This document shows, piece by piece, positions 1-63,799 of a stretch of 64,000 nucleotides of DNA. The translations under genes were made by a program, and so were the position numbers. Numbering within the stretch: position 1 is the stretch's first letter; each line of letters starts with the position of its first letter. The notes beneath the pieces are model-generated. The model saw only the letters and a program-made list of their open reading frames with translations. It was not told the DNA's origin and searched no databases. This stretch comes from a virus (lineage: Duplodnaviria; Caudoviricetes): the IMG/VR virus record IMGVR_UViG_3300046517_000603, positions 371 through 64,370 of that record. The stretch is one strand, 5' to 3'.

Positions 1-2
1 GC

Positions 3-74
3 GGTCGTCATTCGGTAAAGGCTCAGGAAAAGGCCGCCAAAAAGGCGTCCGCTAACCTGACCGCTACCGCGTAG
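3..74 (+). CDS. 3' end of a truncated gene (…GRHSVKAQEKAAKKASANLTATA*)
   Basis: Open frame from window start to TAG 72-74; may be the continuation of the gene starting at 63924 if the genome is circular. Confidence 0.45.
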   Translation, partial: GRHSVKAQEKAAKKASANLTATA

Positions 75-163
75 CGAATTGCTCCCCGGAATTGGATCGT
101 TGAATTTCGGGGAGCTTTTCGGTGCGGCAATACCGCTGTACCGCGTATAGGAGGGTCCAAATG
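72..163 (+). promoter_or_regulatory. Double-hairpin early leader copy + RBS
   Basis: TAGC; stem GCTCCCCGGAATT(81-93)/AATTTCGGGGAGC(103-115); stem CGGTGCGGC(120-128)/GCTGTACCG(135-143); AGGAGGGT; ATG 161. Confidence 0.75.
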
Positions 164-349
164 AATCGTCCCGAATCTCGCCGGAATGAGATTGCGAAAT
201 TGCGATCGCGGCGGTATAATTGGGCAGTAAAGGCCGACGAATTGGCCGTTGAGCGTTTTGAGCGGTATTGCGCCGCTCGCCGCGTATTTGGTCAGACAAT
301 TTTCGCGTCAGATTCTGACAAGAAATTCGTCAAATTCAACGGCCGGTAG
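161..349 (+). CDS. hypothetical early protein
   Basis: ATG 161 after AGGAGGGT and the conserved leader. Confidence 0.65.
   Translation: MNRPESRRNEIAKLRSRRYNWAVKADELAVERFERYCAARRVFGQTIFASDSDKKFVKFNGR
192..220 (+). promoter_or_regulatory. putative sigma-70/SigA promoter
   Basis: TTGCGA(192-197)-17 bp-TATAAT(215-220). Confidence 0.45.
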
Positions 350-359
350 GACGGAATTC

Positions 360-467
360 ATGAACCGAATTCCGCGCTGGAATGACGCCTGGCCGATGTA
401 TTTGGTCGCGGCGCCGATCGTTGTAATTTGTGCCGGAATTATCGCCAACATAGCGATGAGTTTGTAG
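360..467 (+). CDS. small membrane peptide
   Basis: AGGA RBS; hydrophobic stretch YLVAAPIVVICAGIIANIAMSL. Confidence 0.45.
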   Translation: MNRIPRWNDAWPMYLVAAPIVVICAGIIANIAMSL

Positions 468-556
468 TATTTCGGCCGTATTTAGTTGATATTTACAATG
501 GAGGGTTTGAGATTCCGGAATTGATCTTCCGTCATTGGCGCGAGCTCGTGGCGGAT

Positions 557-765
557 GGGGAATTCCGGAATTCAGATTCCCGAATTCAGTTTCGGAGGCC
601 ACAACACCGGAATGTTTATACCCGATGAGCAATTCGGGTATTCAGGTTCGGGTCTGCGGTTCAAGGAATTGAAATTCGGGTTTTGGAATACCGGAATTGG
701 GGTTCGGGTTTTGCGATTCGGGAATCCACAATCCGGATTCAAGACTCGGGGATGTCAATTCCCGA
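557..765. repeat. degenerate ~13-15 bp tandem repeat tract (approx. RTTCGGGWWTT…)
   Basis: Units such as ATTCGGGTATTCAG, GTTCGGGTCTGCG, ATTCGGGTTTTGGA, GTTCGGGTTTTGCG, ATTCGGGAATCCACA. Confidence 0.6.
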
Positions 766-818
766 AACATAAGCTACAAAAGCGTGCCCACAAAAATTGT
801 GAAACATAAGCTACAAAA
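764..818 (+). repeat. 18-bp direct repeat GAAACATAAGCTACAAAA x2
   Basis: Exact copies at 764-781 and 801-818; 16-bp third copy at 4081-4096. Confidence 0.85.
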
Positions 819-849
819 CCCTACCCACACAACCAGAAGGAGGTGAGAA

Positions 850-1125
850 ATGGCAAAGCGACGCCCGCGTAACAAGAACAATGGGCCTGTAAACGTCAGG
901 CGCAAAGGCGGCGGCGGTCGAGCAAGGGATACGTTCCAAGATGTCTGGTCAACAGGTGTACCGCAAGTTGACCGGGATTTGATGGACAATCCTACGTGTA
1001 ACGTCCGCTATGAACCTCAGCCGAACAAGCGACCTGGACGTTTTGTAACATGTGGCGAGCCCGCTATAAGCACAAGGTTCGCCGCAGGCAAAACGATGAG
1101 AGTCTGCGTCAAGCATATGAGCTAG
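850..1125 (+). CDS. basic, Cys-containing hypothetical protein
   Basis: Strong AGGAGGTGA RBS; 91 aa. Confidence 0.7.
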   Translation: MAKRRPRNKNNGPVNVRRKGGGGRARDTFQDVWSTGVPQVDRDLMDNPTCNVRYEPQPNKRPGRFVTCGEPAISTRFAAGKTMRVCVKHMS

Positions 1126-1226
1126 TGTGGGTTCTGAATCCCTGCCGACGGACAAACGGCAGGGGTTGAGCACCCCGCTCAAACCGCCCACAGATCAGGG
1201 CGGTTCCCGAAAAGGAGGGTCGAATG
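1123..1226 (+). promoter_or_regulatory. Double-hairpin early leader copy (variant) + RBS
   Basis: TAGT; CCCTGCCG/CGGCAGGG stem; AACCGCCC/GGGCGGTT stem; CCGAAAAGGAGGGTCGAATG. Confidence 0.65.
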
Positions 1227-1574
1227 ACACCCAAAGAGGCTCGATACCATGTCTTCGTGAATGGTGTTGAGAAACGAGTGACGGATGATCCCGACTCTGC
1301 CGAAGACTGGGCAGAGCTGTCCCGCGAGAAAGGTCGAGCTGAGGTACACGTCATCAAGACGATTCCTCACCAGGTCATTCTCGTTGACCACATCCCGTCG
1401 TGCAACTTCTGTCAGAGCCTGGGCGAGTACGACTTCAAGACCGTCCATGGCCCTTGGGCCAACGGCTGCGAAGCGCATTGGCAGGCATACCGTGCCTACC
1501 CAAAGCTCGGCACAGGTTTTGGCCAGAAGTGGGTTCAGCGTCCGAAGAAGCTGACTGGTGGTGTCCACCAATGA
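1224..1574 (+). CDS. hypothetical protein with putative Zn-binding motif
   Basis: CNFC…GPWANGCEAH…LGTGFGQK; strong RBS. Confidence 0.8.
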   Translation: MTPKEARYHVFVNGVEKRVTDDPDSAEDWAELSREKGRAEVHVIKTIPHQVILVDHIPSCNFCQSLGEYDFKTVHGPWANGCEAHWQAYRAYPKLGTGFGQKWVQRPKKLTGGVHQ

Positions 1575-1792
1575 GCCTCGCCAGCGTCAACCTCGATGAG
1601 TACGTCAGCGAGATCATCAAGTGCTTCAAGGAGAACGATGTTCCGCTTGACAAGAAAAGCGTCGCAGCCGAGATCATGGACACCTTGTATTCGCAAGGCG
1701 TCTTCGGCGATGACCCGTCGGAAGGTGAGCTGGATCTGGCTGAGAAGCAGATCATGGACAACCTCCCGTACTACGCACCGGAACTCAGGTAG
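1571..1792 (+). CDS. acidic hypothetical protein
   Basis: ATGA overlap with the upstream stop; MSLASVNLDEY…. Confidence 0.7.
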   Translation: MSLASVNLDEYVSEIIKCFKENDVPLDKKSVAAEIMDTLYSQGVFGDDPSEGELDLAEKQIMDNLPYYAPELR

Positions 1793-1892
1793 TATACAGC
1801 CGATGTACTTCTGGTGGCCACCGATGATCGCAGGAATCATCCTAGCGTTCATTGTGGGCATCATGATCGGCATCTTGACGTCCGATAGTGCT

Positions 1893-1971
1893 CAGCAGCC
1901 GCCTTGGCATAACAGGCCAAGGTTGGCTGGTGTGCATCAATCGGCACCGCAACAACCGAAGGAGGGTCATG
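1893..1971 (+). promoter_or_regulatory. Double-hairpin early leader copy + RBS
   Basis: CAGC; CAGCCGCCTTGGC/GCCAAGGTTGGCTG; weaker GGTGT/GCACC; CCGAAGGAGGGTCATG. Confidence 0.7.
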
Positions 1972-2241
1972 TCAGAAGAACAAAAGTTCTTCACAATTGA
2001 GGGGATCATCGTGGGCTATCTTATGCCTGAGATGGACGATCCCAAGTGGGATTTCATCGAGTGTCATGGCGAGATCCTGGTGGTGAGGACGAATCCGGGC
2101 CGCATCTACCTGCGATCCATCATCAACGACGTGTACATGACGGACGGTGAGAACGAAGATCCGGAACTAAACTTCAAGATCGGTCAGCGTGTCACGTTCA
2201 GCACGAACATCGTAGAGCAGAGAAGCTACGGCTATGCCTAG
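1969..2241 (+). CDS. hypothetical protein
   Basis: ATG 1969 after the conserved RBS (MSEEQKFF…). Confidence 0.75.
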   Translation: MSEEQKFFTIEGIIVGYLMPEMDDPKWDFIECHGEILVVRTNPGRIYLRSIINDVYMTDGENEDPELNFKIGQRVTFSTNIVEQRSYGYA

Positions 2242-2629
2242 CCCTAGCAACTACCCGCCAGGCGTCTCAGGGAATGAGCCTGAGATCACTGGTCAGTGGC
2301 CGGCCGATCCGCACAACCCATGGCAGGTCACCTACGCCGGTGTTGGGCAGACGGAACGCTTCGCCGTTCAGCACATGGGCAGCGAAGAACTAGTGCTGCT
2401 CTACGATGACCTGGCGAGTGAAGGCGGCATGGATCGCGATGCTGCTGAAGAGCTGGCCCGCCAGCTGAACGAGCTGACGGCTAAGCCGTACTGCTGCGTC
2501 AATGAACGTGGAACATGTCTGATCTGCGGTGACTACTCTGCTCATTCAGATTCTGACTACCCGTTCTTGAAGCCAGTGAAGAAAGCCAATGGTACGTATT
2601 ACTGGCTTGCCAGCACATCCCTGGATTGA
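2234..2629 (+). CDS. hypothetical protein (Cys/His cluster)
   Basis: Overlaps the upstream stop; SNYPPGV N-terminus; CC…CLIC motif. Confidence 0.7.
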   Translation: MPSPSNYPPGVSGNEPEITGQWPADPHNPWQVTYAGVGQTERFAVQHMGSEELVLLYDDLASEGGMDRDAAEELARQLNELTAKPYCCVNERGTCLICGDYSAHSDSDYPFLKPVKKANGTYYWLASTSLD

Positions 2630-2677
2630 TTCCAGGGGTGTCGTGGCAATTCAGCCACGGAAAGAAGGAGGGTCATG
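2611..2677 (+). promoter_or_regulatory. Double-hairpin early leader copy + RBS
   Basis: CAGC; ACATCCCTGGA(2615-2625)/TCCAGGGGTGT(2631-2641); CGTGGC/GCCACG; GAAGGAGGGTCATG. Confidence 0.8.
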
Positions 2678-2992
2678 AGAACACAGTTTGACTCGATGGA
2701 GAAAGCTCTCAACGACGCTGAGACTCACGATCAACCGCGCATCGCTTGGACAGCAACGCCGTCAAGTGGAAGCACGGTTTTGATGTGGGTTGAGCACGAT
2801 CGCGACGAGCACTCAATCGAGTACGATCTGCTCTGTGTGACCAAAGGTCATCAGCCGTTCGTCACCTACCGGCTCATCACCGGCGTCGAACAGATGAGCG
2901 ACGGGAAGTACAGAGCGATTGTGCCGTACACCATCTGGGGTCACTTCTTCGAGGGGCTCCAGGAAGCGATGGACGACTTCTGGGGCCGTTGA
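2675..2992 (+). CDS. hypothetical protein
   Basis: Conserved RBS; 105 aa. Confidence 0.75.
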   Translation: MRTQFDSMEKALNDAETHDQPRIAWTATPSSGSTVLMWVEHDRDEHSIEYDLLCVTKGHQPFVTYRLITGVEQMSDGKYRAIVPYTIWGHFFEGLQEAMDDFWGR

Positions 2993-2996
2993 CATC

Positions 2997-3287
2997 ATGC
3001 ATGAAATGAGTCAAGAGCAATTCTACATTGATCTCGTCGGCGTCGCAGAAACCATCGCCAAAGACATCAAGGGTGACTACCCTCACATTAACACAGAATC
3101 CGAGTGTTACGTGTACGAGATTGACGGAAGACTCGTCGGCTACATCTACATGGGTGATGCCGGCGAGTGGGCTTTCATCGACAAGTTCGACCAGTTCGAT
3201 ACTTGTGATGAGGAAGGCACTCAGCTCCACGAAGCGCATGAGTATCTGGAGCGCGCTAAGGCGCTGAGTCCGTACAAGAGCTGGTAA
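2997..3287 (+). CDS. acidic hypothetical protein
   Basis: Tight packing after the upstream gene; exact start uncertain (2997 or 3006). Confidence 0.65.
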   Translation: MHEMSQEQFYIDLVGVAETIAKDIKGDYPHINTESECYVYEIDGRLVGYIYMGDAGEWAFIDKFDQFDTCDEEGTQLHEAHEYLERAKALSPYKSW

Positions 3288-3289
3288 CA

Positions 3290-3369
3290 CAGCGATGGCT
3301 GCCCCCGTTGTCCGGGGCAGCTGTCGGTGGTTATCAACCATCGAACATAAGCCGAAGGAGGGAATCATG
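3290..3369 (+). promoter_or_regulatory. Double-hairpin early leader copy + RBS
   Basis: CAGC; CGATGGCTGCCCC/GGGGCAGCTGTCG (13 bp, 2 G-U); CGGTGGTT/AACCATCG; CCGAAGGAGGGAATCATG. Confidence 0.8.
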
Positions 3370-3699
3370 TCAGTAATCAAGTGCTTCGATTGCACGCAGA
3401 CATTCACAACACAGGACGAGATGGAATACACCACCGCGCTCTGTGGCGACTGCTGCATCAAGTGGGGTATCACGCCCGAGATCGCCGACAAGATCATGCG
3501 CATCGACAAGCAGTTCGGCAACCCAGCGAGCATCTGGGAAGCGAGTTCAGCCGAAGTCGTGGACTGGATGTGGGACTGCGCGAAATCCGGTGTGGACGCC
3601 TCTGAAACAAGCGAGGAGTCAGCCGACTGGATCGCAGCCCGGCGACTCGTCCATGCGCACAACGTCCTGTGGTTCGGCTCCGAGATCCTACTGAGGTGA
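3367..3699 (+). CDS. hypothetical protein with N-terminal CxxC…CxxC Zn finger
   Basis: CFDC…CGDC; conserved RBS. Confidence 0.75.
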   Translation: MSVIKCFDCTQTFTTQDEMEYTTALCGDCCIKWGITPEIADKIMRIDKQFGNPASIWEASSAEVVDWMWDCAKSGVDASETSEESADWIAARRLVHAHNVLWFGSEILLR

Positions 3700-3917
3700 G
3701 AGTGGCTACGTTTGAAATCAAGAGAGTGCTGCAAGGCAGCCGAAGCGGTTTGAGAAGAGTCGCAGTCGTGAATGCCCCGACGGCGATGCACGCGCTGCGT
3801 AAGTTCGCGGATAGGAGACAGGCAATCCTGCGCCCTGAGGACGACGGTAGGCTATGGCGAGCTACCATTCTCATGGACAACGGAACGCTCCGCGACTTTG
3901 TCGCATCGACGGACTGA
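3696..3917 (+). CDS. hypothetical protein
   Basis: GTGA overlap with the upstream stop. Confidence 0.55.
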   Translation: MRVATFEIKRVLQGSRSGLRRVAVVNAPTAMHALRKFADRRQAILRPEDDGRLWRATILMDNGTLRDFVASTD

Positions 3918-3919
3918 AA

Positions 3920-3994
3920 CAGCCGGTCGCAGATGCCACCAGCTCTGCGGCCGAGTGTTCCAGCCGGAACGCTGAACCGAAGGAGGGTCATATG
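3920..3994 (+). promoter_or_regulatory. Double-hairpin early leader copy + RBS
   Basis: CAGC; CGGTCGCAGA/TCTGCGGCCG; AGTGTTCC/GGAACGCT; CCGAAGGAGGGTCATATG. Confidence 0.8.
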
Positions 3995-4213
3995 GGTTGG
4001 TTGATAGGGGTGGCGGCCATACCGTTTGTGCTAGCGTTTCTGTTTCAACTCTGCCTAGTTCATTACGCTCACATGGAACGGAAACATAAGCTACAAGAGC
4101 GGGATGCACAAATCAGAGAGAAGCTAAAACCCCCGGACAATGTTGTTCCAATCACGAAGAAACTCGTGGACGACATTGTGACACTCGAAATCGAGCGAAA
4201 GATCAACCAATGA
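3992..4213 (+). CDS. small membrane protein
   Basis: N-terminal TM segment WLIGVAAIPFVLAFLFQLCLV; conserved RBS. Confidence 0.7.
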   Translation: MGWLIGVAAIPFVLAFLFQLCLVHYAHMERKHKLQERDAQIREKLKPPDNVVPITKKLVDDIVTLEIERKINQ

Positions 4214-4440
4214 GTCTGCCACAGACGCTGTACGAATCACCCTCGGGCTTGGTACATCTGGCTGGCCTTTTGAAGGCCACGTCGTACAGCCCGAAGCGAG
4301 CTATCACTCGCTGTGGTCGGGAAGTGAATCTTGAGACCTGGAGCCGAATCCCCATGCTTGACGAGTGGATGTTCGGTAAGGGGCTCAGGGTGATCGCTGA
4401 CAAGATCGAGCTGCCGAAGTGCGATCGTTGCTTCGAGTGA
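4210..4440 (+). CDS. hypothetical protein (H…C…CxxC)
   Basis: ATGA overlap; VH…TRCG…CDRC. Confidence 0.65.
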   Translation: MSLPQTLYESPSGLVHLAGLLKATSYSPKRAITRCGREVNLETWSRIPMLDEWMFGKGLRVIADKIELPKCDRCFE

Positions 4441-4442
4441 GA

Positions 4443-4518
4443 CAGCCTATCCACTCCGCACTGCGGTCGGAGTGGGTGGGGTGCTCATAAGAGCACCAAA
4501 CCGCGAAGGAGGGTCATG
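4443..4518 (+). promoter_or_regulatory. Double-hairpin early leader copy + RBS
   Basis: CAGC; CCTATCCACTCCG/CGGAGTGGGTGGG; GGTGCTC/GAGCACC; GAAGGAGGGTCATG. Confidence 0.85.
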
Positions 4519-4902
4519 CCACTCAATATCTACGTCGAGCGGCGCGGCAAGAGACGCAAGGATCTCATTTGGGATCAGCAGATGCTTGACTTCTGCTACA
4601 CCGTCGCGTACATGGACGAAGATCCTGACCGGGTGTACTCCGAGGGCAAGACGTTCGGAGGACTTGGAAAGTGGGTGTTCGATCCGGAGAACAAGTGCGA
4701 GACGAAGTGGGCAGGTCAAGAATTCGAGCACTACGTCAGCTTCACGTTCGGCGTGTACTACATCGAAGGCGATTGCGGTCTTGTCAAAGAGGGCGAACAA
4801 GTCGTGAAGAAGAAGCATCGCTTCTTTCACACGGCTGCTGAGAAGCCAGTTGTGTTTCTGCCCGGAGACAAGATCGTTGCGTGGAGGTCACACAAGTCAT
4901 GA
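4516..4902 (+). CDS. hypothetical protein
   Basis: Conserved RBS; 128 aa. Confidence 0.75.
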   Translation: MPLNIYVERRGKRRKDLIWDQQMLDFCYTVAYMDEDPDRVYSEGKTFGGLGKWVFDPENKCETKWAGQEFEHYVSFTFGVYYIEGDCGLVKEGEQVVKKKHRFFHTAAEKPVVFLPGDKIVAWRSHKS

Positions 4903-5111
4903 CGATCAAAGACTACACCACCGATCAGCCTGGCGAAGGCGAGCAGACATGGACAACTGATGAGATGACCCGAGACTTTGAAGTCAAGGGTTTCTCAGCT
5001 CCGTACGTTGTCGTGATCCGAAAGTCAGATCGCCAGCTCGGATCTCTACAGTTCACGCATAACCCGAGAGTGTACTTCAACTTCCAGCCTACTTCGGCGC
5101 GACCATCATGA
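4899..5111 (+). CDS. hypothetical protein
   Basis: GGAGG RBS; ATGA overlap; DFEVKGFSAPYVVVIRKSD. Confidence 0.7.
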   Translation: MTIKDYTTDQPGEGEQTWTTDEMTRDFEVKGFSAPYVVVIRKSDRQLGSLQFTHNPRVYFNFQPTSARPS

Positions 5112-5341
5112 TCACGCTCAAACAGGCGAAGGAGCTGAAGCCCGGAGATATCCTCCACGATGACACGGTCAAGAGCGCCGACGGCTCCTGTATGCGCTGG
5201 CGTGTCAATGGCCATGTCAAAACGTGGAAGACAATGCCGGATCGTATCAGAGTTCCGCTCAAGCATGGTCTGTACGACTACGGCCGCTTGACGGAAGCAG
5301 AGCTGCGAACAGTCCATCGCGAGATTGACTGCGAAGGCTGA
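5108..5341 (+). CDS. hypothetical protein
   Basis: ATGA overlap; WRVNGHVKTWKT…PLKHGLY. Confidence 0.7.
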   Translation: MITLKQAKELKPGDILHDDTVKSADGSCMRWRVNGHVKTWKTMPDRIRVPLKHGLYDYGRLTEAELRTVHREIDCEG

Positions 5342-5342
5342 C

Positions 5343-5480
5343 CAGCCCATCCATCCCAACATCCTGGGGTGGGTGGAGTGGTCAACTTCATTGTGATCAG
5401 CGTGCCCCTGCTCGTTGTTGACCCTCCGCGAGCGGGGGCACGGTGCTCATGGTGAGTACCAATACCGAAGGAGGGTCATG
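5343..5480 (+). promoter_or_regulatory. Two tandem leader copies (the first has no RBS or gene) + RBS
   Basis: CAGC-CCATCCATCCCA/TGGGGTGGGTGG; then CAGC-CGTGCCCCTGCTCG/CGAGCGGGGGCACG, GGTGCTCA/TGAGTACC, CCGAAGGAGGGTCATG. Confidence 0.8.
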
Positions 5481-6014
5481 CCAAGAATGACAGCTCAGCT
5501 CGTGCTGGGGGAGTCCATCCTGGACATCAAAGCCGGACATTGGCTTTGTGGCGAGATCATGCAGGCGGCGGAAGCCAACGGAAACAAGAAGCCGGACGGC
5601 TGCGCAGTCGGCCTCGCAGTCATCAATGCGAAGCTCGCACCTATCGTCATCGAGGAGGACACCACGGGGCAGTTCGAGTCGGGCCTGTATGCGTATTGCC
5701 CGATCATCTTGAATCCATCGGAATACTTCAAAGGCGACGGGGAATACACCCAGGCTCAGCTGAAGGCACTGGAGAAGTCGATCATGGCGCTTGCTCTGGC
5801 CATCCCGATGGACTTCCGGGACGTCACAACGATCGAGCATACAGGCGCAGACGGAGAGAGTTACTGGGAAGACATCCCACTCTCCAACGACGAGATCAAG
5901 GACTTCAGCATCAATCAGTTGGAGAAAATCGTCATCGAGTACAACGACTCCAGCATCAACGCTCACGAAGCGGAGCAGTGGTTTCAAGCAGCGTACGACA
6001 GCGTCAAGAGCTGA
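5478..6014 (+). CDS. hypothetical protein (DUF6197-like, GHWLCG…GCAVG motif)
   Basis: Conserved RBS; family call tentative. Confidence 0.7.
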   Translation: MPRMTAQLVLGESILDIKAGHWLCGEIMQAAEANGNKKPDGCAVGLAVINAKLAPIVIEEDTTGQFESGLYAYCPIILNPSEYFKGDGEYTQAQLKALEKSIMALALAIPMDFRDVTTIEHTGADGESYWEDIPLSNDEIKDFSINQLEKIVIEYNDSSINAHEAEQWFQAAYDSVKS

Positions 6015-6015
6015 A

Positions 6016-6243
6016 ATGCCAGTTCCTCTGATCATCGGCTTGACATACGAGATCGAATATCGGCTCTCGTCTCAACGCAGACGTCATGTGTTGGTCGGAA
6101 TGTACCTGGGTGTGGATACCAAGCATTGCCGAGTATTCAACACGAGAACAGACTGGGTATACGATCCGGCTGCCATGATCGTCATACCGGCCGAATCTGT
6201 CACATCGTATCGACGGATGACAGATCAGGAAGTGATGGGGTAG
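6016..6243 (+). CDS. hypothetical protein
   Basis: Starts 1 nt after the upstream stop. Confidence 0.6.
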   Translation: MPVPLIIGLTYEIEYRLSSQRRRHVLVGMYLGVDTKHCRVFNTRTDWVYDPAAMIVIPAESVTSYRRMTDQEVMG

Positions 6244-6316
6244 TGGGTTGCGAGCCTGTCCCACCGGGGCAGGCTCGGAGTTCATTCGGACTCCATTAAC
6301 CGAAGGAGGGTCAATG
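6241..6316 (+). promoter_or_regulatory. Double-hairpin early leader copy + RBS
   Basis: TAGT; CGAGCCTGTCCC/GGGGCAGGCTCG; GGAGTTC/GGACTCC; CCGAAGGAGGGTCAATG. Confidence 0.8.
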
Positions 6317-6844
6317 GCTTCGACAGCCTGGACAGAGGATCCAGCATCGGAGGCTCAGCTCGCGTTCATACAAGACCTCTCACAGAAGCACGAGATGTCT
6401 GATGAGCAAGCTGAGTTCCTTGCCAGAGTCGGCATGGGTGGACGTAAGCTAAGCAAAGGCGAAGCGTCCAAGATCATCACGGCTCTCAAGGAGATGCCCC
6501 GGAAGGCACAGTCGCGAGACTGGCCTGATATCCCTGCCGGTCGCTACGCCATTGTCGATCCGCTAGACGATGTCCTCAAGTTCTACCGCGTGGACAAGCC
6601 GACGGAAGGCAAGTGGCAGGGCTTCACGTTCCTGAGCGTGTACGCTTCAGATGAACAGTACCCAATCAAGAACAAGGAGCACAAGAAAGCGATCATGGAT
6701 GAGATCGCCAAGAATCCCGAAGCTGCCATGTCTCGGTACGGTCTTGAGATCGGCAAGTGCGGGATCTGCGGACGAACGCTCACAGATGAAACCAGCAGGG
6801 CTCGGGGTATCGGCCCGATCTGCGCAGCCAAGGAAGGCTGGTGA
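6314..6844 (+). CDS. DUF6011-family Zn-finger protein
   Basis: C-terminal CGICGRTLTDETSRARGIGPICA; N-terminal PASEAQLAFI…LSKGEASKII. Confidence 0.8.
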   Translation: MASTAWTEDPASEAQLAFIQDLSQKHEMSDEQAEFLARVGMGGRKLSKGEASKIITALKEMPRKAQSRDWPDIPAGRYAIVDPLDDVLKFYRVDKPTEGKWQGFTFLSVYASDEQYPIKNKEHKKAIMDEIAKNPEAAMSRYGLEIGKCGICGRTLTDETSRARGIGPICAAKEGW

Positions 6845-7047
6845 TGGCTCAGCTGAACCTTCAAGTCACTCGCGCCGGCAACGTGATCACGGTGAAAACA
6901 GACACCAACACCGAGATTTTCAGCGCCGAGTACAAGAATCGAGGCGAGATCATCGACCATTGCCTCTGGCTAGCTCGAACAGGTAGAGTCAATGCCGATC
7001 GTCAAACGATCATCGACCTGCTGAAGAAGAACGGTGTGATCACTTGA
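6841..7047 (+). CDS. hypothetical protein
   Basis: GTGA overlap. Confidence 0.65.
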   Translation: MMAQLNLQVTRAGNVITVKTDTNTEIFSAEYKNRGEIIDHCLWLARTGRVNADRQTIIDLLKKNGVIT

Positions 7048-7175
7048 ATGAGTTCCGGTGGTACATACGCCGACTCACTCTCGATGAGATCCTCGGCCTG
7101 GTCAGAACGCAGAACGTACCGAAAGCGTTCATGCCGGCGATTCTCTCCGAGTTGAAACGAAGGAAGTACACATGA
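7044..7175 (+). CDS. small hypothetical protein (43 aa)
   Basis: TTGA overlap upstream and ATGA overlap downstream fill the gap exactly. Confidence 0.45.
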   Translation: MNEFRWYIRRLTLDEILGLVRTQNVPKAFMPAILSELKRRKYT

Positions 7176-7387
7176 TCAAGTGGCGTGAAGTCGAATCGAG
7201 CAACGTTGATAGCATCGGCTGGGATGACAAAGGCAATATGTACGTCCGGTACATCGGATCTGGTAAGACGTACATGTATGTTGGCGTTCCTCGTCAACGC
7301 GCCGTAGCTGCCTCGCGAGCTAAGAGCGTAGGAAGCTACATCGCGCGTCACATCAAAGGTCGGTACGAGCCAGTACACATCGGCTAG
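7172..7387 (+). CDS. KTSC domain protein
   Basis: VESSNVDSIGWD…Y…G.TY.Y.GVP…A.SVGSY…IKG.Y pattern. Confidence 0.85.
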   Translation: MIKWREVESSNVDSIGWDDKGNMYVRYIGSGKTYMYVGVPRQRAVAASRAKSVGSYIARHIKGRYEPVHIG

Positions 7388-7469
7388 TAGTGGGTGTCTC
7401 AGATAGGCTCTGAGACGCCCGGTACCAGTCGGTGCCGCAGCAATCCGAGAGGAGGGGCGTAGTGAAATG
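7388..7469 (+). promoter_or_regulatory. Double-hairpin early leader copy + RBS
   Basis: TAGT; GGGTGTCTCAGA/TCTGAGACGCCC; CGGTACC/GGTGCCG; CCGAGAGGAGGGG. Confidence 0.8.
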
Positions 7470-7718
7470 ACCAGAAAGCTGAAGGTCAGGTTAGAAGATC
7501 GAGGTCACGGGGACATGACAATCCATCTACCGGCGTTACCGCCTGAAATGGATGGTGAGCACGACGTCATCTTCCACGACGGCGATCGAGTGATCTTCGG
7601 CTTGATGATCTACCGCTATGAGGACGGTCACGTGAACGTCGGATTGTTCGACCCTCACGTGGCTGATCCGGTCTACGACCACGAGTTCAAGGAGACGCAT
7701 GGGCAAAAAGAAGCCTGA
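7467..7718 (+). CDS. hypothetical protein
   Basis: RBS after the leader; 83 aa. Confidence 0.65.
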   Translation: MTRKLKVRLEDRGHGDMTIHLPALPPEMDGEHDVIFHDGDRVIFGLMIYRYEDGHVNVGLFDPHVADPVYDHEFKETHGQKEA

Positions 7719-7968
7719 GAACATCGTGCTCAAACACGTCGATGTGGTCAATCTTGACCATCCGGATGGAGACAACACATTCTCCATCCGAGACGGACAT
7801 GTTGAGTTCTTCATGGACGAGCATGATCTCCAGTGGATCAAGTTCACGCCCTCCAACGGCTATCACGCCGGGCAGGAGCATTGTGTTCCACGCGAACGTA
7901 TCATCGCCGTGGTCTACGAGAAACGAAAGTCTGAGCCAAAAGCGGTTCAGGAGATTCGCGTAACCTGA
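7699..7968 (+). CDS. hypothetical protein
   Basis: AAGGAG RBS. Confidence 0.65.
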   Translation: MGKKKPENIVLKHVDVVNLDHPDGDNTFSIRDGHVEFFMDEHDLQWIKFTPSNGYHAGQEHCVPRERIIAVVYEKRKSEPKAVQEIRVT

Positions 7969-8051
7969 GAAGATGACGAAACCTCCAATCATATTCTCTC
8001 CTCGGTGGTTCCGCATCCTCTGGATGTTGATCCAAGAGTCTAGAAAGTGAG

Positions 8052-8117
8052 TAGTGGCCCCACAGAGTAGCGTCTGTGGGGCCGGTGCTCATTCGAGTAC
8101 CAGAGAGGAGGGTCATG
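8052..8117 (+). promoter_or_regulatory. Double-hairpin early leader copy + RBS
   Basis: TAGT; GGCCCCACAGA/TCTGTGGGGCC; GGTGCTC/GAGTACC; GAGGAGGGTCATG. Confidence 0.85.
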
Positions 8118-8438
8118 GCGAAAGAGAAGTCACGCTCGAAGCGGTGGCAGGAAGCCATCGACAAAGCCAAGGAGATGTTCGAGTTGATCCGAAACGCCGG
8201 TGATGAACTAGCGTCTGCGTGCTCCGAGCTACACGAAATTCAACAGGAGTATCAGGACTGGCTCGACAACTTGCCCGAGAATCTGGAGAACAGTGCCCTG
8301 GGCGAGAAGCTCCAAGCTGTCTGCGACATCGACATCGAGAGCCTAGCGGATGATCCGTTGTCCGATTGGCCAAATCTGGAAAGCACACTCGAAGAAGCTG
8401 AGTCGACGGAACTGCCGATGGGCTTCGGGAGGGACTAA
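8115..8438 (+). CDS. hypothetical coiled-coil protein
   Basis: EEYQDWLDNLPENLENS.LGEKL-type motif ending GFGRD. Confidence 0.75.
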   Translation: MAKEKSRSKRWQEAIDKAKEMFELIRNAGDELASACSELHEIQQEYQDWLDNLPENLENSALGEKLQAVCDIDIESLADDPLSDWPNLESTLEEAESTELPMGFGRD

Positions 8439-8603
8439 ATGGACAAGCCAGCCAATTACGTCATCGTCAAGTGCGAGTCAGAAGACGAGGCTCAGAAGCT
8501 CCTCGACCACGTCGTGGATGAGTTCGAGTCGGCGACGGTCTGGCCGTACCTGGCATTTGATGACGGCTTCGGTCACTTCGTCCGGAAGGGCGAGGCCGAA
8601 TAG
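8439..8603 (+). CDS. small hypothetical protein (54 aa)
   Basis: GGAGG RBS; MDKPANYVIVKCES…. Confidence 0.6.
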   Translation: MDKPANYVIVKCESEDEAQKLLDHVVDEFESATVWPYLAFDDGFGHFVRKGEAE

Positions 8604-8606
8604 TCT

Positions 8607-8740
8607 CAGCGCTGTGAGTCAGAATCCCTGCTAACACAAGGATTCTGGCTCAGAGTGGCTAAGGGACTAGCCATTCTACCGCCGATTAGGTATGATATCG
8701 GCGGCCAGATTCACCACCACTACCAGAAGGAGGGATCATG
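8607..8740 (+). promoter_or_regulatory. Double-hairpin leader copy + third hairpin/possible promoter + RBS
   Basis: TGAGTCAGAATCC/GGATTCTGGCTCA; GAGTGGCTA/TAGCCATTC; CCGCCGAT/ATCGGCGG around TATGAT (TAGCCA-17-TATGAT); AGAAGGAGGGATCATG. Confidence 0.7.
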
Positions 8741-9274
8741 GCCAGAGTCCCAGTCGAGCTGGATCCAGCTCAAATCTCAGCTGCCGCAAAGGCAATTGGG
8801 AAGTTCGATGACGAGGATTCCGACAGCTCGAAGATCCAAGCTGTCGAGAAAGCCGTCAAGGGAGTTTCACCCATGATGGCTGCTCGTCTCGTGTACGCGG
8901 CAGAGGTCAAGCTCGACCCGTCGCTCAAGTTCAAGGCCACCGCGAAGAACATCGTGCAGGCACGTGAGCCTGTCGCGGAAGGTGGAATGGGCATGAGGTG
9001 GGAGCGCGTTGTGGCTCGCACCGGCTTGGCCTCCATAGGTGAGGTCAAGAACGTCCTCTTGGACGCCGGGGTTGACCCGGACGAGACGTATGTTGGTCGT
9101 GGCAAGAGAACAATCGCCAACGGCAACAGCTTCTCGCCCAAGGCCAAGAAGGCAGAGGCTGAGAAGCCGAAGCGTGGGCCTGGACGACCCAAGAAGTCCG
9201 AGACTGATGCGGACGCGACGGGAACCAAGGTGCGCAAGCGGCAGGCGTTGAAGCCGCGCCCTTCGCGCACGTAG
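8738..9274 (+). CDS. putative DNA-binding protein with AT-hook
   Basis: C-terminal basic tail with KRGPGRPKK (GRP-core AT-hook). Confidence 0.7.
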   Translation: MARVPVELDPAQISAAAKAIGKFDDEDSDSSKIQAVEKAVKGVSPMMAARLVYAAEVKLDPSLKFKATAKNIVQAREPVAEGGMGMRWERVVARTGLASIGEVKNVLLDAGVDPDETYVGRGKRTIANGNSFSPKAKKAEAEKPKRGPGRPKKSETDADATGTKVRKRQALKPRPSRT

Positions 9275-9321
9275 ATACGGATGTAGAATACATAGCCCTG
9301 CTGGAAGGTAGAACCTTCACT

Positions 9322-9654
9322 GTGAAGTCTGAACTGATGAACAACGACGGTGAAACGTCGATAACGGGCGTCAGTGATTATCACTGCGAGAAGTTTCTAC
9401 GCTTTCTTCCAGCAGGGCAAACCGAAAAGGGATTCAGGGCAAGACCGTTGATCCAATTCTATCGCGACCGCTACACATATCGGGGTCGTGACGGATTTGG
9501 ACACATGCATACGATCTGCCCTGATGACATCATCCGTGTCAAGGGCTTCACCGAGGCGCAGATCAAGCAGCGGATCATCCAGATTCGGCGAGGATTGCCG
9601 GTTCAGGAGGAGAAGCCGCCGAAGGTGCGTCGTCGGAAGCAACTCAAGAAGTGA
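9322..9654 (+). CDS. hypothetical basic protein
   Basis: 110-aa ORF filling the gap; start/RBS unclear. Confidence 0.5.
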   Translation: MKSELMNNDGETSITGVSDYHCEKFLRFLPAGQTEKGFRARPLIQFYRDRYTYRGRDGFGHMHTICPDDIIRVKGFTEAQIKQRIIQIRRGLPVQEEKPPKVRRRKQLKK

Positions 9655-9808
9655 GCGGTGGGCGGGGGAACCCGCCCAACTGCTCTGCTGCACGAGGCGG
9701 GAGGATGGGCAATACGGCCGTAACGGGCGCTGCCTACTGACACTTAGGTGAACCCGTGTCCGCCCGCCTCGTGGAGCAGAACGCTCCAATCCCGAAGGGA
9801 GGGTTTCG
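9653..9808 (+). ncRNA. putative structured 5' leader of the helicase gene
   Basis: GGGCGGG-GGAA-CCCGCCC hairpin followed by a 22-bp long-range stem 9684-9705/9759-9780 (2 mismatches) enclosing inner stems. Confidence 0.55.
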
Positions 9809-11689
9809 ATGGGTAAGACCATCTATGCTGAAGTCGATGACTCCGGCCGCAGGATTTGGCTGAGATTCGACTACGACTACGGCATAAAGGAAAAGATCAA
9901 GCGCAAGGTGCCAAACAGCCGGTTTATAGCCCCGGACAAAGGTGGCCCCGCCTGGTCTGTGCCTCTAGACCTAATCGTCGCTCGCCAGTTGCGAGAGCTG
10001 TTCGGACAAAGCCTCCAGCTAGGCCCGAAACTGCTCCAGTGGGGCAGGGACGAGGTTCAGCGGGAGCGTAATCTGAGCGGGCTCGCTCTGGCGGAAGACG
10101 CTGAGTTGGTCCACTGTCCGATTGATTTGCCCGAGATGTGCGATCTGATCAAGGGCGATGGGACTGAAGAACGTCCCGATCGGAAGTACCAGCGCGCCGA
10201 CATTGCGTTCATGGCTGCGACTAACGCCGGCAACTTGAACCAGATGGGCCTCGGGAAGACAATTGAGGTTATCGGCGCAATCTACGAGGCAGAGCTAGCG
10301 AATGGACCACACTTGATTATCGCTCCGAAGACAGCTCTGGAGACTGTGTGGCGATTCGAGCTTGAACGGTGGACTGACATCCCTGTCTTCACGCTCTACA
10401 GCGAGACGCCGAGCGCGGAGCGCAACGCTCTGCCTCAGCTGATTGCGAAAGCGATGGAAGATTGGGAAGCCTACGCATTCGTGACGACGGCGAGCATGCT
10501 CCGCTCTAAGAAGTGGCGCGAGATGTTCCTTGAACGCGAATGGAACACGTTCACCATCGATGAGTACCACAAGACGGGGCTCTGCGAGCCTACGTCACAG
10601 TTTGCTAAGCTAGCGAAGGCGATCAAAGCAGAACGGCGCATCCCGATGTCTGGGACGCCGATGGGCGGTAAGCCGGTTAAGCTGTGGAGTGCCTTGAACT
10701 TCATCGATCCCGACCGCTTCAGCTCGAAGTGGAAGTGGGCTGAGCAATGGTTGATCATCTCGTCCGGGTTTAGAGACCACAAGGTCATCGAAGGACTGAA
10801 GCCGGGCATCGAGTCCAAGTTCTACGAAGCTCATGCTCCGTATCTGGTACGTCGATTGAAGTCGGAAGTAGCGTCTCAGCTGCCTCCGAAACAGCACGTT
10901 GACGTGTGGTGCGAGATGACGCCAGCTCAGAACAAGCAGTATCGCGAGTTTGCGGCAGCTGCTGAGATCCGCATCGAGGAGAATCATCTGTCTGCGACTA
11001 ACATCCTGACGGAATATCTCCGGCTGAAGCAGTTCTCAAACGCCGTCTGCCTCGTGCATGAATACACAGTCGATTGTAAGCACAATAAGAACGAAGGTGA
11101 TAAGCTCGGCTGTGAAGATTGCATGGGGTCAGGAATCGTAGTCAAACAGAAGCTAATCCCTCAAGAGGACTCTGGTAAGCTACCACACCTACTTGAGAAC
11201 CTCAACGAGCTAGGCATCGACCCAACAGATCCCGAGGGCGACGCACAAACCGTGATCGCCTCGCAGTTCAGGGAGATGATCGAGATGGTCGCGCGCTGGC
11301 TAGAGAAGCAAGGAATCCCAGTTGCGTTGATCACGGGCTCTGTCAAAGGCAAGGATCGTGTGCGGATTCAGCGCGAGTTTCAGGACGGAACTGGCCCGCG
11401 TGTCGTTTGTATGACGACGACTGCCGGTGGAGTATCAATCACACTTGACCGGGCCGATACCGTACACATTCTAGATGAGACTTGGAACCCCGATGACCAG
11501 GAACAGCTGGAGGATAGAATCCACCGGATTTCCAGGGTTCATCAAGTGACTTGCTACTACTATCGGAGTCGAAATACCGTTGAACAATACATTGCGGAAA
11601 CGACGGCCGATAAAAGCAAGTTGAACGACATCGTGTTGGATGTGCATCGTAAGGCGATGCGACAACTCAAAAATCACAAGAAATCATAG
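9809..11689 (+). CDS. SNF2-family (SF2) DNA helicase/translocase
   Basis: MGLGKT Walker A, IDEYH, SGTP, LVRRLK, GGVSITL, WNP…Q.EDRIHRI. Confidence 0.9.
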   Translation: MGKTIYAEVDDSGRRIWLRFDYDYGIKEKIKRKVPNSRFIAPDKGGPAWSVPLDLIVARQLRELFGQSLQLGPKLLQWGRDEVQRERNLSGLALAEDAELVHCPIDLPEMCDLIKGDGTEERPDRKYQRADIAFMAATNAGNLNQMGLGKTIEVIGAIYEAELANGPHLIIAPKTALETVWRFELERWTDIPVFTLYSETPSAERNALPQLIAKAMEDWEAYAFVTTASMLRSKKWREMFLEREWNTFTIDEYHKTGLCEPTSQFAKLAKAIKAERRIPMSGTPMGGKPVKLWSALNFIDPDRFSSKWKWAEQWLIISSGFRDHKVIEGLKPGIESKFYEAHAPYLVRRLKSEVASQLPPKQHVDVWCEMTPAQNKQYREFAAAAEIRIEENHLSATNILTEYLRLKQFSNAVCLVHEYTVDCKHNKNEGDKLGCEDCMGSGIVVKQKLIPQEDSGKLPHLLENLNELGIDPTDPEGDAQTVIASQFREMIEMVARWLEKQGIPVALITGSVKGKDRVRIQREFQDGTGPRVVCMTTTAGGVSITLDRADTVHILDETWNPDDQEQLEDRIHRISRVHQVTCYYYRSRNTVEQYIAETTADKSKLNDIVLDVHRKAMRQLKNHKKS

Positions 11690-63477: not shown

Positions 63478-63799
63478 ATTCCGTGAGCCCCGCCCGTCGG
63501 GGAGGGGGAATTGAGAGTCGATACCGCGCCAAATTCTTCTTCCGAATTTTGAGGGGATTACGAGCGAGGGGTCGTTACTCAAAATCCAATTCGGCCGCCG
63601 ATTGTTTGGTAGCGAATTTTGACGCTAATAGGGGATTGGATTAGGGGGCGACTTTTATACGCTTTGACCGGAGTTTAGAACTGAAATACCGGCGACTAAT
63701 TGGAAATGACCGATTAATTCGGACGCGGGATTTGGGTATTGAATAGGCGCTACTCGCCGAATATGCGACTCTAATTGACCCTCCCTCCTTACGGGCGGG

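Follow-up and report, generated by a model that had tools for sequence, protein, structure and literature searches.

The early genes of an uncultured tailed soil phage (IMG/VR record IMGVR_UViG_3300046517_000603) are separated by a cis-acting structured RNA element that folds on their sense strand and consists of three short segments arranged around a variable, GC-rich stem 1. The DNA analyzed, hereafter called the window, is a stretch of 64,000 nucleotides, bases 371-64370 of a 64,370-bp contig, and positions are given in window coordinates. The middle segment of the element can pair with the first segment or with the third, and the first segment holds the stop codon of the gene upstream. The family is common to this phage and several related uncultured phages, and its copies probably mark the points at which the long early message is cut, is protected or passes to the next gene. 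Tentatively, we read the element as an RNase III-type processing and stabilizing site whose fold would be toggled by the terminating ribosome.

Anatomy of the element and its two folds

Segment 1 (consensus N-TGA-NN-AGC) comprises the 8-9 bases 5' of stem 1. It is followed by stem 1 itself, which is variable and 10-13 bp long, by segment 2 (GGTGYTCAN), by 2-3 further loop bases and by segment 3 (GAGYACC). A short A/C-rich linker, the near-invariant strong ribosome site AGGAGGG and the start codon lie 3' of segment 3. In form X, segment 2 pairs with segment 1 and lengthens stem 1 to a helix of ~20 bp with one conserved G.G mismatch. This mismatch is 1x1, both of its G residues are invariant, and it separates an upper stem of 10-13 bp from a lower stem of 7-8 bp. 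The X helix spans 18-25 positions in 28 of 34 copies (mode 20), the other six being shortened by bulges or long loops. In form Y, segment 2 pairs with segment 3 instead, which gives a 7-bp hairpin 2 stacked directly on stem 1, and the two stems together reach a length similar to that of X. The fourth pair of stem 1 is a conserved U.G wobble in 27 of 36 aligned rows. Triple changes were also seen, in which GGAG replaces GGTG in segment 2 together with CTGC for CAGC in segment 1 and CTCC for CACC in segment 3.

An earlier note on this DNA had described a short second stem abutting stem 1. The pairing of segments 2 and 3 is real, but segment 2 has an alternative pairing that excludes it. The partner that was overlooked is the upstream flank holding the upstream gene's stop codon. 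With this flank included, the minimum free energy (MFE) fold of many copies extends stem 1, the flank pairing with the 5' arm of stem 2.

Fold energies were nearest-neighbor predictions. Over 26 complete copies, E(Y)-E(X) was +1.0 +/- 3.0 kcal/mol, with X lower in 15 of the 26, and the best direct path between the two forms had predicted barriers of ~9 and ~8 kcal/mol. Since the energies are nearly equal and the barriers are of this size, X and Y should exchange readily and be easily tipped. Over the stretch from ribosome site to start codon, the predicted probability of being unpaired averaged 0.48 for X and 0.54 for Y (n = 23 copies; Wilcoxon p 0.012). Because predicted access differs so little, masking of the ribosome site in the manner of erm attenuators was rejected as the main mechanism.

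The ribosome site is part of a longer word. The 16-mer CCGAAGGAGGGTCATG, allowing up to three mismatches, matched the window six times, always on the plus strand and within 1956-6315 (expected 0.75; 0 of 100 shuffles reached six). GAAGGAGGG is present eight times on the plus strand (1958-8726) and never on the minus strand. The extended ribosome-site word is real and early-specific. An exact scan of IMG/VR with the 16-mer returned four loci with one match each.

Relatives, covariation and strand preference

A search of IMG/VR with the SNF2 helicase of the phage returned 31 loci, and all relatives that carry the element are metagenomic contigs. The closest loci, L005 and L006 (77% helicase protein identity), lie on one 129,757-bp contig and carry the architecture many times, with a sharper consensus than the window. 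Their helicase loci differ from each other, and neither the places nor the identities of their matches to the window agree; two related genomes of ~65 kb appear to be joined in this contig. The same design, with its own words and its own conserved ribosome site, was present in L007-L009 (54% helicase identity) and in L012 and L016 (47%).

Pairs of either alternative helix were scored on the alignment that had been fitted to the opposite fold. Alignment A4, fitted to X, has 36 distinct rows, and alignment A5, fitted to Y, has 46 distinct rows, weak and reverse rows included. On A4, stem 1 was 98.0% paired and all ten of its pairs vary on both sides, while hairpin 2 (segment 2 with segment 3) was 95.8% paired and four of its seven pairs vary on both sides. 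On A5, the helix of segments 1 and 2 was 97.5% paired at two pairs and 84.0% at five. Slid controls were 34-48% paired, and none of 500 shuffles reached the observed values in any of these cases; the copies are partly orthologous, so cell counts overstate the number of independent covariation events. Non-Watson-Crick positions were strongly biased, the ratio of G-U to A-C being 50:3 in stem 1, 44:2 between segments 1 and 2 and 22:2 between segments 2 and 3 (116:7 in total). This excess fits folding of the plus strand as RNA, not a duplex palindrome.

Covariance models were built from a seed of 16 regular copies; a MAFFT alignment of nine window copies was structurally incoherent and was dropped. 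Model R1 contains stem 1 and the pairing of segments 1 and 2, and model R2 contains stem 1 and the pairing of segments 2 and 3. They were run on both strands of the window plus the 31 loci (680,427 bases). R1 gave 37 matches at E<=1, 36 of them on the plus strand. R2 gave 47 at E<=1, and the 32 at E<=0.01 were all on the coding strand; its best reverse-strand shadow scored 17.2 bits, compared to 30-66 bits for the 28 best plus-strand matches. At E<=0.001, R2 found 29 matches in the relatives and none in 735,940 bases of 80 unrelated viral loci, which were the loci listed of at least 120 stretches from a gapped pattern scan of IMG/VR. The sole listed locus with several pattern matches (six; L083, 1-240, minus strand) is a collagen-like G-X-Y coding repeat and not an RNA element.

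These results bear out part of what the earlier note had proposed from the letters of the sequence. It had claimed a sense-strand element selected for structure, and the covariation in stem 1 and in both pairings of segment 2 exceeds that of all shuffles, G-U far exceeds A-C as in the G-T bias that it reported, and the strong model matches are all on the coding strand. The YAGY motif that it placed at the head of the copies proved to be part of segment 1, where the G is invariant (G in 36 of 36 plus-strand rows, column 10 of A4). It also held that the element was new, and the 64-kb window has no Rfam match at gathering scores; a search of window 1-10000 at E up to 5 gave four sub-threshold, chance-level matches only. 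No description of the element was found in a full-text literature search on actinobacteriophage intergenic stem-loops and RNase III intercistronic phage sites.

A stop codon embedded in segment 1

The position of the stop codon was assessed in the 30 matched copies preceded by an open frame of 50 codons or more. The frame ends exactly at the TGA (or TAG) of segment 1 in 23 of the 30, and the remaining seven end 3, 3, 3, 4, 5, 7 and 22 nt upstream of it. A TAG is often present four bases later, but none of the 30 frames uses it and none enters stem 1. Relative to a 1/3 chance, the binomial p is 1.5e-6, which is overstated since the copies are related.

The rule recurs in other subfamilies. Three copies in L012 carry TGA within CTGAGCAGGA, L016 behaves likewise, and the L005/L006 copies with a GGACAAC loop have either TGA in CTGATAG or TAG in CTGTAG, the latter paired with CTACAG. 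The stop codon also covaries with segment 2, as TGA with TCA and, in the window copy at 3285, as TAA with TTA. There are three exceptions in the window: the open reading frame (ORF) before the copy at 2608 ends in the stem 1 loop, the copy at 5393 has its TGA without an upstream gene, and the TGA of the copy at 8047 ends a 25-codon ORF. Stop and following start share a reading frame in 8 of 28 copies. This is the chance level, and read-through fusion of neighboring genes was rejected for this reason.

Copies in the window

Early genes occupy the plus strand from ~1 to 28 kb, and the virion genes are on the minus strand. The early region consists of units of 1-4 genes, within which stops and starts overlap or almost touch. 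Gaps of 45-154 nt separate the units, and the elements sit in those gaps. Thirteen gaps, each taken from stop codon to ribosome site, were folded and compared to 200 dinucleotide shuffles per gap: 72, 1123, 1886, 2608, 3285, 3915, 4438, 5339 (two copies), 6241, 7385, 8048, 8601 and 9652. All 13 fold beyond their shuffles (z -3.44 to -8.25), so the gaps are structured as the earlier note had it. No shuffle folded as well in 12 of the gaps, and 2 of 200 did so in gap 1886. The plus-strand MFE was below the minus-strand MFE in 12 of 13, the exception being 8601.

About 14 uniform copies had been claimed. The common layout of a GC-rich stem 1, an abutting short stem 2, an A/C linker and a near-identical ribosome site is shared by nine (1886, 2608, 3285, 3915, 4438, 5393, 6241, 7385 and 8048) and loosely by 72, but the other four differ. 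Extra hairpins are present at 1123 and 8601, stem 2 and the ribosome site are lacking at 5339, and 9652 is another, larger structure. U-tracts had been said to be absent. This holds for gaps 1123-8740, which contain no T-run of three or more, but not for the copy at 72, where TTTT directly follows stem 1. A terminator scan listed none of the elements. A scan for promoter -35/-10 hexamers found none in 12 of the 13 gaps, and the copy at 8601 has the sole promoter-like site.

The models matched 6 of the 14 window copies (8047, 5393, 6243, 4437, 7384 and 5338). They are biased to L005/L006 words, and the remaining copies were read by eye from the sequence. The copies are as follows.

72-163, plus strand: variant copy with stop TAG at 72-74, stem 1 at 81-115, TTTT, a second hairpin at ~120-143, AGGAGGG at 149 and ATG at 161; fold z -5.44; the only copy with a T-run after stem 1; unmatched by the covariance models.
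1123-1226, plus strand: variant copy with stop TAG at 1123-1125, a long hairpin at 1129-1175 with apical loop ACGGACAAA, a third hairpin, AGGAGGG at 1213 and ATG at 1224; an alternative short hairpin can form on the 3' arm of the long one (to 1182), X having 17 pairs and Y six; z -6.40; no match to the models.
1886-1971, plus strand: stop TAG at 1886-1888 directly 5' of segment 1 GTGCTCAGC, then stem 1, segment 2 GGTGTGCAT, hairpin 2, linker and CCGAAGGAGGGTCATG; the MFE fold is stem 1 extended by flank pairing; z -3.44; TGC/GCA replaces TGA/TCA, as read from the sequence.
2608-2677, plus strand: stem 1 at 2615-2641, abutting hairpin 2 at 2642-2659, ribosome site and ATG at 2675; the MFE fold is the double hairpin; z -5.46; the upstream ORF (2234-2629) stops at the TGA within the stem 1 loop.
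3285-3369, plus strand: stop TAA at 3285-3287 in segment 1 TAACACAGC, stem 1, segment 2 GGTGGTTAT, hairpin 2 and ATG at 3367; the MFE fold is the X form; z -3.75; TAA of segment 1 pairs with TTA of segment 2.
3915-3994, plus strand: stop TGA at 3915-3917 in segment 1 TGAAACAGC, stem 1, an 8-bp hairpin 2 (AGTGTTCC/GGAACGCT) and ATG at 3992; the MFE fold is the double hairpin (Y); z -4.62.
4437-4518, plus strand: segment 1 at 4437-4446 (TGA 4438-4440), stem 1 at 4447-4479, segment 2 and hairpin 2 at 4480-4497, linker, AGGAGGG at 4507 and ATG at 4516; 39.6 bits (R1) and 40.4 bits (R2); predicted energies -26.9 (X) and -26.6 (Y); the stop belongs to a 116-codon open frame.
5338-5392, plus strand: X form only, in which TGACCA, containing the stop TGA at 5339-5341, is paired with TGGTCA on the other side of stem 1; hairpin 2 and a ribosome site are lacking, and no gene lies between it and the next copy; weak R1 match (19.7 bits, E 0.079).
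5393-5480, plus strand: full copy with segment 1 GTGATCAGC, a long stem 1 with GACCCTCC in its loop, segment 2 GGTGCTCAT, hairpin 2 and CCGAAGGAGGGTCATG; the TGA in segment 1 is not a gene's stop; 48.7 bits (R1) and 49.1 bits (R2).
6241-6316, plus strand: stop TAG at 6241-6243 directly 5' of segment 1 GTGGGTTGC, stem 1, segment 2 GGAGTTCAT, segment 3 GGACTCC and ATG at 6314; 45.8 bits (R1) and 47.2 bits (R2); a triple change, A to T, T to A and A to T, in segments 1, 2 and 3.
7384-7469, plus strand: stop TAG at 7385-7387 in segment 1 CTAGTAGT, stem 1, segment 2 GGTACCAG, hairpin 2, ribosome site GAGGAGGGG and ATG at 7467; 19.8 bits with both models (E 0.077 with R1, 0.0047 with R2); z -5.12.
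8047-8117, plus strand: the clearest copy in the window, with segment 1 at 8047-8055 (TGA 8048-8050), stem 1 at 8056-8083, segment 2 at 8084-8092, hairpin 2 at 8084-8101, ribosome site at 8105-8112 and ATG at 8115; 57.3 bits (R1) and 57.1 bits (R2); predicted energies -34.3 (X) and -33.5 (Y); when the gap is folded, the MFE structure is Y and the centroid is X.
8601-8740, plus strand: hybrid copy with stop TAG at 8601-8603, CAGC, a 20-bp hairpin at 8610-8657, two more hairpins, a long linker, AGGAGGG at 8728 and ATG at 8738; z -4.94; the only gap that folds better on the minus strand.
9652-9811, plus strand: a tetraloop hairpin and a long branched stem before the SNF2 helicase gene, outside the three-segment family; z -6.05; no covariance-model match.

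Several copies have further features of their own. The 25-codon ORF that ends on the segment 1 TGA at 8047 (7973-8050) occupies most of the gap before that copy. In the copy at 5393, the stem 1 loop GACCCTCC (5419-5426) is the exact complement of GGAGGGTC in its own ribosome site (5470-5477), and a local fold of 5419-5479 pairs the two at -32.0 kcal/mol. Among the window copies, only this one has GACCCTCC in its stem 1 loop, and an anti-ribosome-site loop was rejected as a general feature. The copy at 8601 holds the promoter-like TAGCCA-17-TATGAT at 8668-8696. TAGCCA, the 17-nt spacing and a TATNNT hexamer recur 5' of the orthologous gene in L005, L006, L007 and L009, and these hexamers probably form a conserved promoter for the 178-amino-acid gene at 8738.

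The leftmost early hairpins of the window and of L005 and L006 make up a second subfamily, in which the apical loop (GGACAAC or GGACAAA) is conserved and the stems vary.

Window 1148-1156: GGACAAC/GGACAAA-loop hairpin.
L005 383-424, 611-654, ~770-830 and 1168-1213: GGACAAC/GGACAAA-loop hairpins.
L006 112-153, ~268-330 and 658-703: GGACAAC/GGACAAA-loop hairpins.

A loop that is conserved while its stems vary suggests a possible binding partner.

One cultured relative, Arthrobacter phage Wollypog, was also inspected. The three-segment layout was not found in 14 of its gaps chosen by eye, six of which lie among the early genes before its helicase; these gaps have single hairpins at most.

Order of the early units and genome context

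Between window 4472 and 7176, the units (hairpin 2, ribosome site and one or more genes) are 73-78% homologous to units of L005/L006, but their order is changed. Blocks that start at window 4472, 5437 and 6267 map to L005 3394, 7847 and 5750, and similarity begins in or near segment 2. The earlier note had raised a folded single-stranded DNA recombination site, and hence a cassette array, as its alternative. Units that are permuted among the window, L005 and L006, with similarity starting and ending at the elements, agree with that proposal, as does a layout of conserved outer repeats around a variable inner repeat. However, a site of the integron attC kind would need a partner tyrosine recombinase as well as DNA that folds strand-specifically, and the genome has no PF00589 match (14 of 14 control genomes matched). 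The fixed registers to the stop codon and the ribosome site, the third covarying segment and the strong bias for G-T over A-C on the coding strand also oppose it. Ordinary homologous recombination in the conserved stretch from segment 2 to the ribosome site would yield the same permutations.

The contig has a 99-bp repeat shared by its ends, is classed as linear by IMG/VR and has a CheckV completeness of 100%. It is a tailed phage encoding a SNF2 helicase, a PD-(D/E)XK nuclease, a primase/MCM-type helicase, DnaE, ThyX and a Mu-like portal and capsid. Its DnaE is ~41-42% identical to that of Microbacterium, Arthrobacter and Streptomyces phages, and the host is probably an actinobacterium. Megablast of window 1-10000 found no near-identical phage record. 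When 20 early proteins were scanned against Pfam, only DUF6011 and KTSC scored above the cut-offs.

Other non-coding stretches were noted. A 382-nt stretch at 468-849 has many GGAATT and TTCGG(G) repeats and local hairpins and may contain early promoters or an origin. Within it, GAAACATAAGCTACAAAA occurs twice (764-781 and 801-818, 37 bp apart) just 5' of the gene at 850, and a copy matching at 16 of 18 positions lies at 4081-4098 within the gene at 3992-4213. On the plus strand at ~63775-63790, an AT-rich non-coding region contains GACCCTCCCTCCTT, the complement of a AGGAGGGAGGGTC-type ribosome site. It may serve as a ribosome site for the minus strand or as an anti-ribosome-site word.

A processing and stabilizing site as the favored reading

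The RNase III-type reading is favored because a two-turn helix with a central defect is repeated between early cistrons, has no U-tract and is accompanied by a promoter-like site at one element only. The early genes would be transcribed as a long polycistronic RNA in which every element is a processing and stabilizing site. A host nuclease like RNase III, specific for double strands, would recognize the two-turn X helix as its substrate and nick the continuous 3' strand near the mismatch, at the junction of stem 1 and segment 2. After the nick, stem 1 would remain on the upstream unit as a 3' protective hairpin. Segment 2 would refold with segment 3 into a hairpin at the extreme 5' end of the downstream unit, just before its ribosome site. 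Hairpins at RNA termini shield the ends from exonucleases and from RNase E/J acting in a 5'-end-dependent manner. A ribosome terminating at the embedded stop would melt only the helix of segments 1 and 2, and segment 3 would then replace segment 1. A stack of ~20 bp would thereby persist with or without translation of the upstream gene.

Hairpins between phage early genes are classic, T7 being the known case. Its R1.1 site, between early genes 1.0 and 1.1, is cut by RNase III and has been described as a 60-nt RNA forming a hairpin that contains an internal loop (PMC6121014). Like the T7 sites, the element is a repeated hairpin of about two turns between early cistrons and has no U-tract, and this likeness to T7 anatomy was counted for the processing reading. 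In T7-type sites an internal loop or defect where the RNA is cut directs a single nick, and the conserved G.G mismatch between the upper and lower stems of the element may be its counterpart. The length of X, 18-25 positions in most copies, corresponds to the two turns of a T7-type site. There are also differences. The stop codon of the upstream gene lies in the lower stem of the element, the 3' strand of this stem has an alternative, likewise covarying, pairing in hairpin 2, the host is probably an actinobacterium, and cleavage is predicted only.

Several points weigh against processing. An RNase III site does not require an embedded stop, but segment 1 holds one in 23 of 30 copies and in the other subfamilies. 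This points to a link with translation, which the processing model explains weakly. A pure processing site would be expected to favor X strongly, but X and Y are balanced. The 1x1 G.G mismatch differs from the 4/5 asymmetric loop of R1.1, and some copies have no hairpin 2. Finally, no phage-encoded RNase III was found (no PF14622 match).

Alternative explanations

Another possible explanation, somewhat less probable in our judgment, is that the element senses translation termination. A ribosome at the segment 1 stop would open the pairing of segments 1 and 2, segment 2 would snap onto segment 3, and the change of fold would be the signal. It is conceivable that this signal reports upstream translation to the next cistron or to a nuclease, for example by bringing the stop within a path of ~15 nt from the next ribosome site (re-initiation) or by altering a single-stranded landing pad. 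The exact placement of the stop in segment 1, and never at the TAG four bases later, supports this, as does the recurrence of the rule in L012-type and GGACAAC-loop copies, including a TAG paired with CTA. The covariation of the stop codon with segment 2, the near-equal energies of the two folds and the low barrier between them also agree. The distance from stop codon to stem 1 is 8-9 nt, and a terminating ribosome covers about that stretch.

Attenuators of the ermC type provide a precedent for alternative hairpins driven by a ribosome. In their ground state the ribosome site is masked, and an alternative pairing frees it. As in the ermC type, three segments of the element compete, and a ribosome on segment 1 would free segment 2 for segment 3. 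In contrast to the ermC type, there is no fourth segment that masks the ribosome site, access to which hardly differs between X and Y, and a large variable hairpin stands between segments 1 and 2. Instead of stalling on a leader peptide, ordinary termination at the end of a full-length gene would set off the change. The sensor is also opposed by the copy at 5393, which keeps its TGA without an upstream gene, and by the ORF at 2608, which enters stem 1. In addition, the stop placement could stem from compaction or from recombination at conserved ends. There is a limited chance that the element represents a novel class of intercistronic riboregulators, one responding to ordinary termination, each terminating ribosome flipping a 20-bp hairpin into a stacked double hairpin and setting the fate of the next unit. 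If true, the early region would be a chain in which expression of each unit depends on translation of the preceding one, through re-initiation, cutting or decay. The processing and ribosome-flip readings can be combined.

The other explanations were ranked lower because they fit fewer features. It is unlikely that the elements are U-less terminators or attenuators that end or thin early transcripts after groups of genes. 'I-shaped' hairpins and tandem 'V-shaped' hairpins without U-tails are listed as actinobacterial terminators. The elements resemble these in being GC-rich, U-less and sometimes tandem and in beginning 0-9 nt from stop codons, and the copy at 72 has a true TTTT tail. However, about 12 elements follow each other within 10 kb, and the scan found a promoter-like site in just one (8668-8696); if they terminated efficiently, the units beyond them would be silent. 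Nor does termination call for 20-bp helices, for an alternative covarying helix or for constant spacing to the ribosome site. Unlike U-less terminators, the elements are arrayed inside an apparent single operon, their lower stem is conserved, segment 2 has two mutually exclusive partners, and a conserved ribosome site follows at a short, constant distance. They also differ from the canonical intrinsic terminator, a GC-rich hairpin with an immediate U-tract, since gaps 1123-8740 have no T-runs and TTTT is present at 72 only. Mycobacterial RNA polymerase has been reported to need a U-tract, which counts against this explanation as well.

A binding site for a phage or host protein is improbable. 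Such a protein would act on RNA polymerase or on translation, the element being either a put-like antiterminator RNA or the operator of a translational repressor that shuts off early genes. The put RNAs of phage HK022 have two abutting stem-loops of ~55-70 nt, 0-1 nt apart, in early transcripts; they act in cis to make RNA polymerase terminator-resistant, and the genome has two copies, just after the early promoters. Form Y, a long stem with an abutting short stem, has this geometry. The invariant unpaired G, the conserved U.G wobble in stem 1 and the confinement of the near-invariant extended ribosome site to early genes could also reflect a protein. On the other hand, the loops are not conserved, and the conserved bases are explained by the two pairings. 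Compared to the two put sites, there are at least 10 copies per genome, and the copies (about ten) lie between genes. The X fold and embedded stop have no counterpart in put, no Rfam or sequence match was found, and the 20 early proteins scanned include no candidate RNA-binding protein.

The closest described actinophage feature is the pair formed by the start-associated sequence (SAS) and extended start-associated sequence (ESAS) of cluster K phages. The SAS is given as a 13-bp word, GGGATAGGAGCCC, 3-9 bp before start codons, and about half of the SAS have an inverted repeat just upstream (PMC3203893, PMC11373665, PMC12699233). Like these, the element joins a near-invariant extended ribosome site, a few bases 5' of the start, to a subset of non-structural genes in one orientation, and an inverted repeat lies 5' of that site. 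The SAS word itself has no match in the window at up to two mismatches, and a different conserved word, GAAGGAGGGTC, plays the analogous part. ESAS are presented as 17-bp, sequence-conserved imperfect inverted repeats, in which, according to the authors, departures do not support RNA pairing (PMC3203893). They are now interpreted as promoters with an operator, that is, SigA-like -35/-10 hexamers and an inverted repeat (PMC11373665), and the function of SAS and ESAS was still called unverified in 2025 (PMC12699233). In contrast to ESAS, the stems of the element vary freely and covary, at all ten pairs in stem 1. An element acting as DNA, either as an attC-like recombination site or as an ESAS-like promoter or operator, would accord with the permuted units and with the promoter interpretation of ESAS. 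It is very improbable given the evidence on recombinase, strand bias and registers set out above and the lack of promoter hexamers in 12 of 13 gaps.

Significance

We file the element among the structured RNA sites between phage early cistrons. Start-associated words of actinophages have been unexplained since 2011, and the family described here is a well-defined RNA backed by covariation, with about ten copies per genome. It combines a two-turn helix, a conserved mismatch, an exclusive pairing of near-equal energy and an upstream stop codon in the switching strand. In annotating a clade of uncultured soil phages, it can serve to locate the borders between early-gene units. For synthetic operons in actinobacteria, it could supply a compact, natural part for insulation or processing. 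The finding opens the question of how actinobacterial phages divide, protect and translate long early messages, and whether the terminating ribosome takes part.

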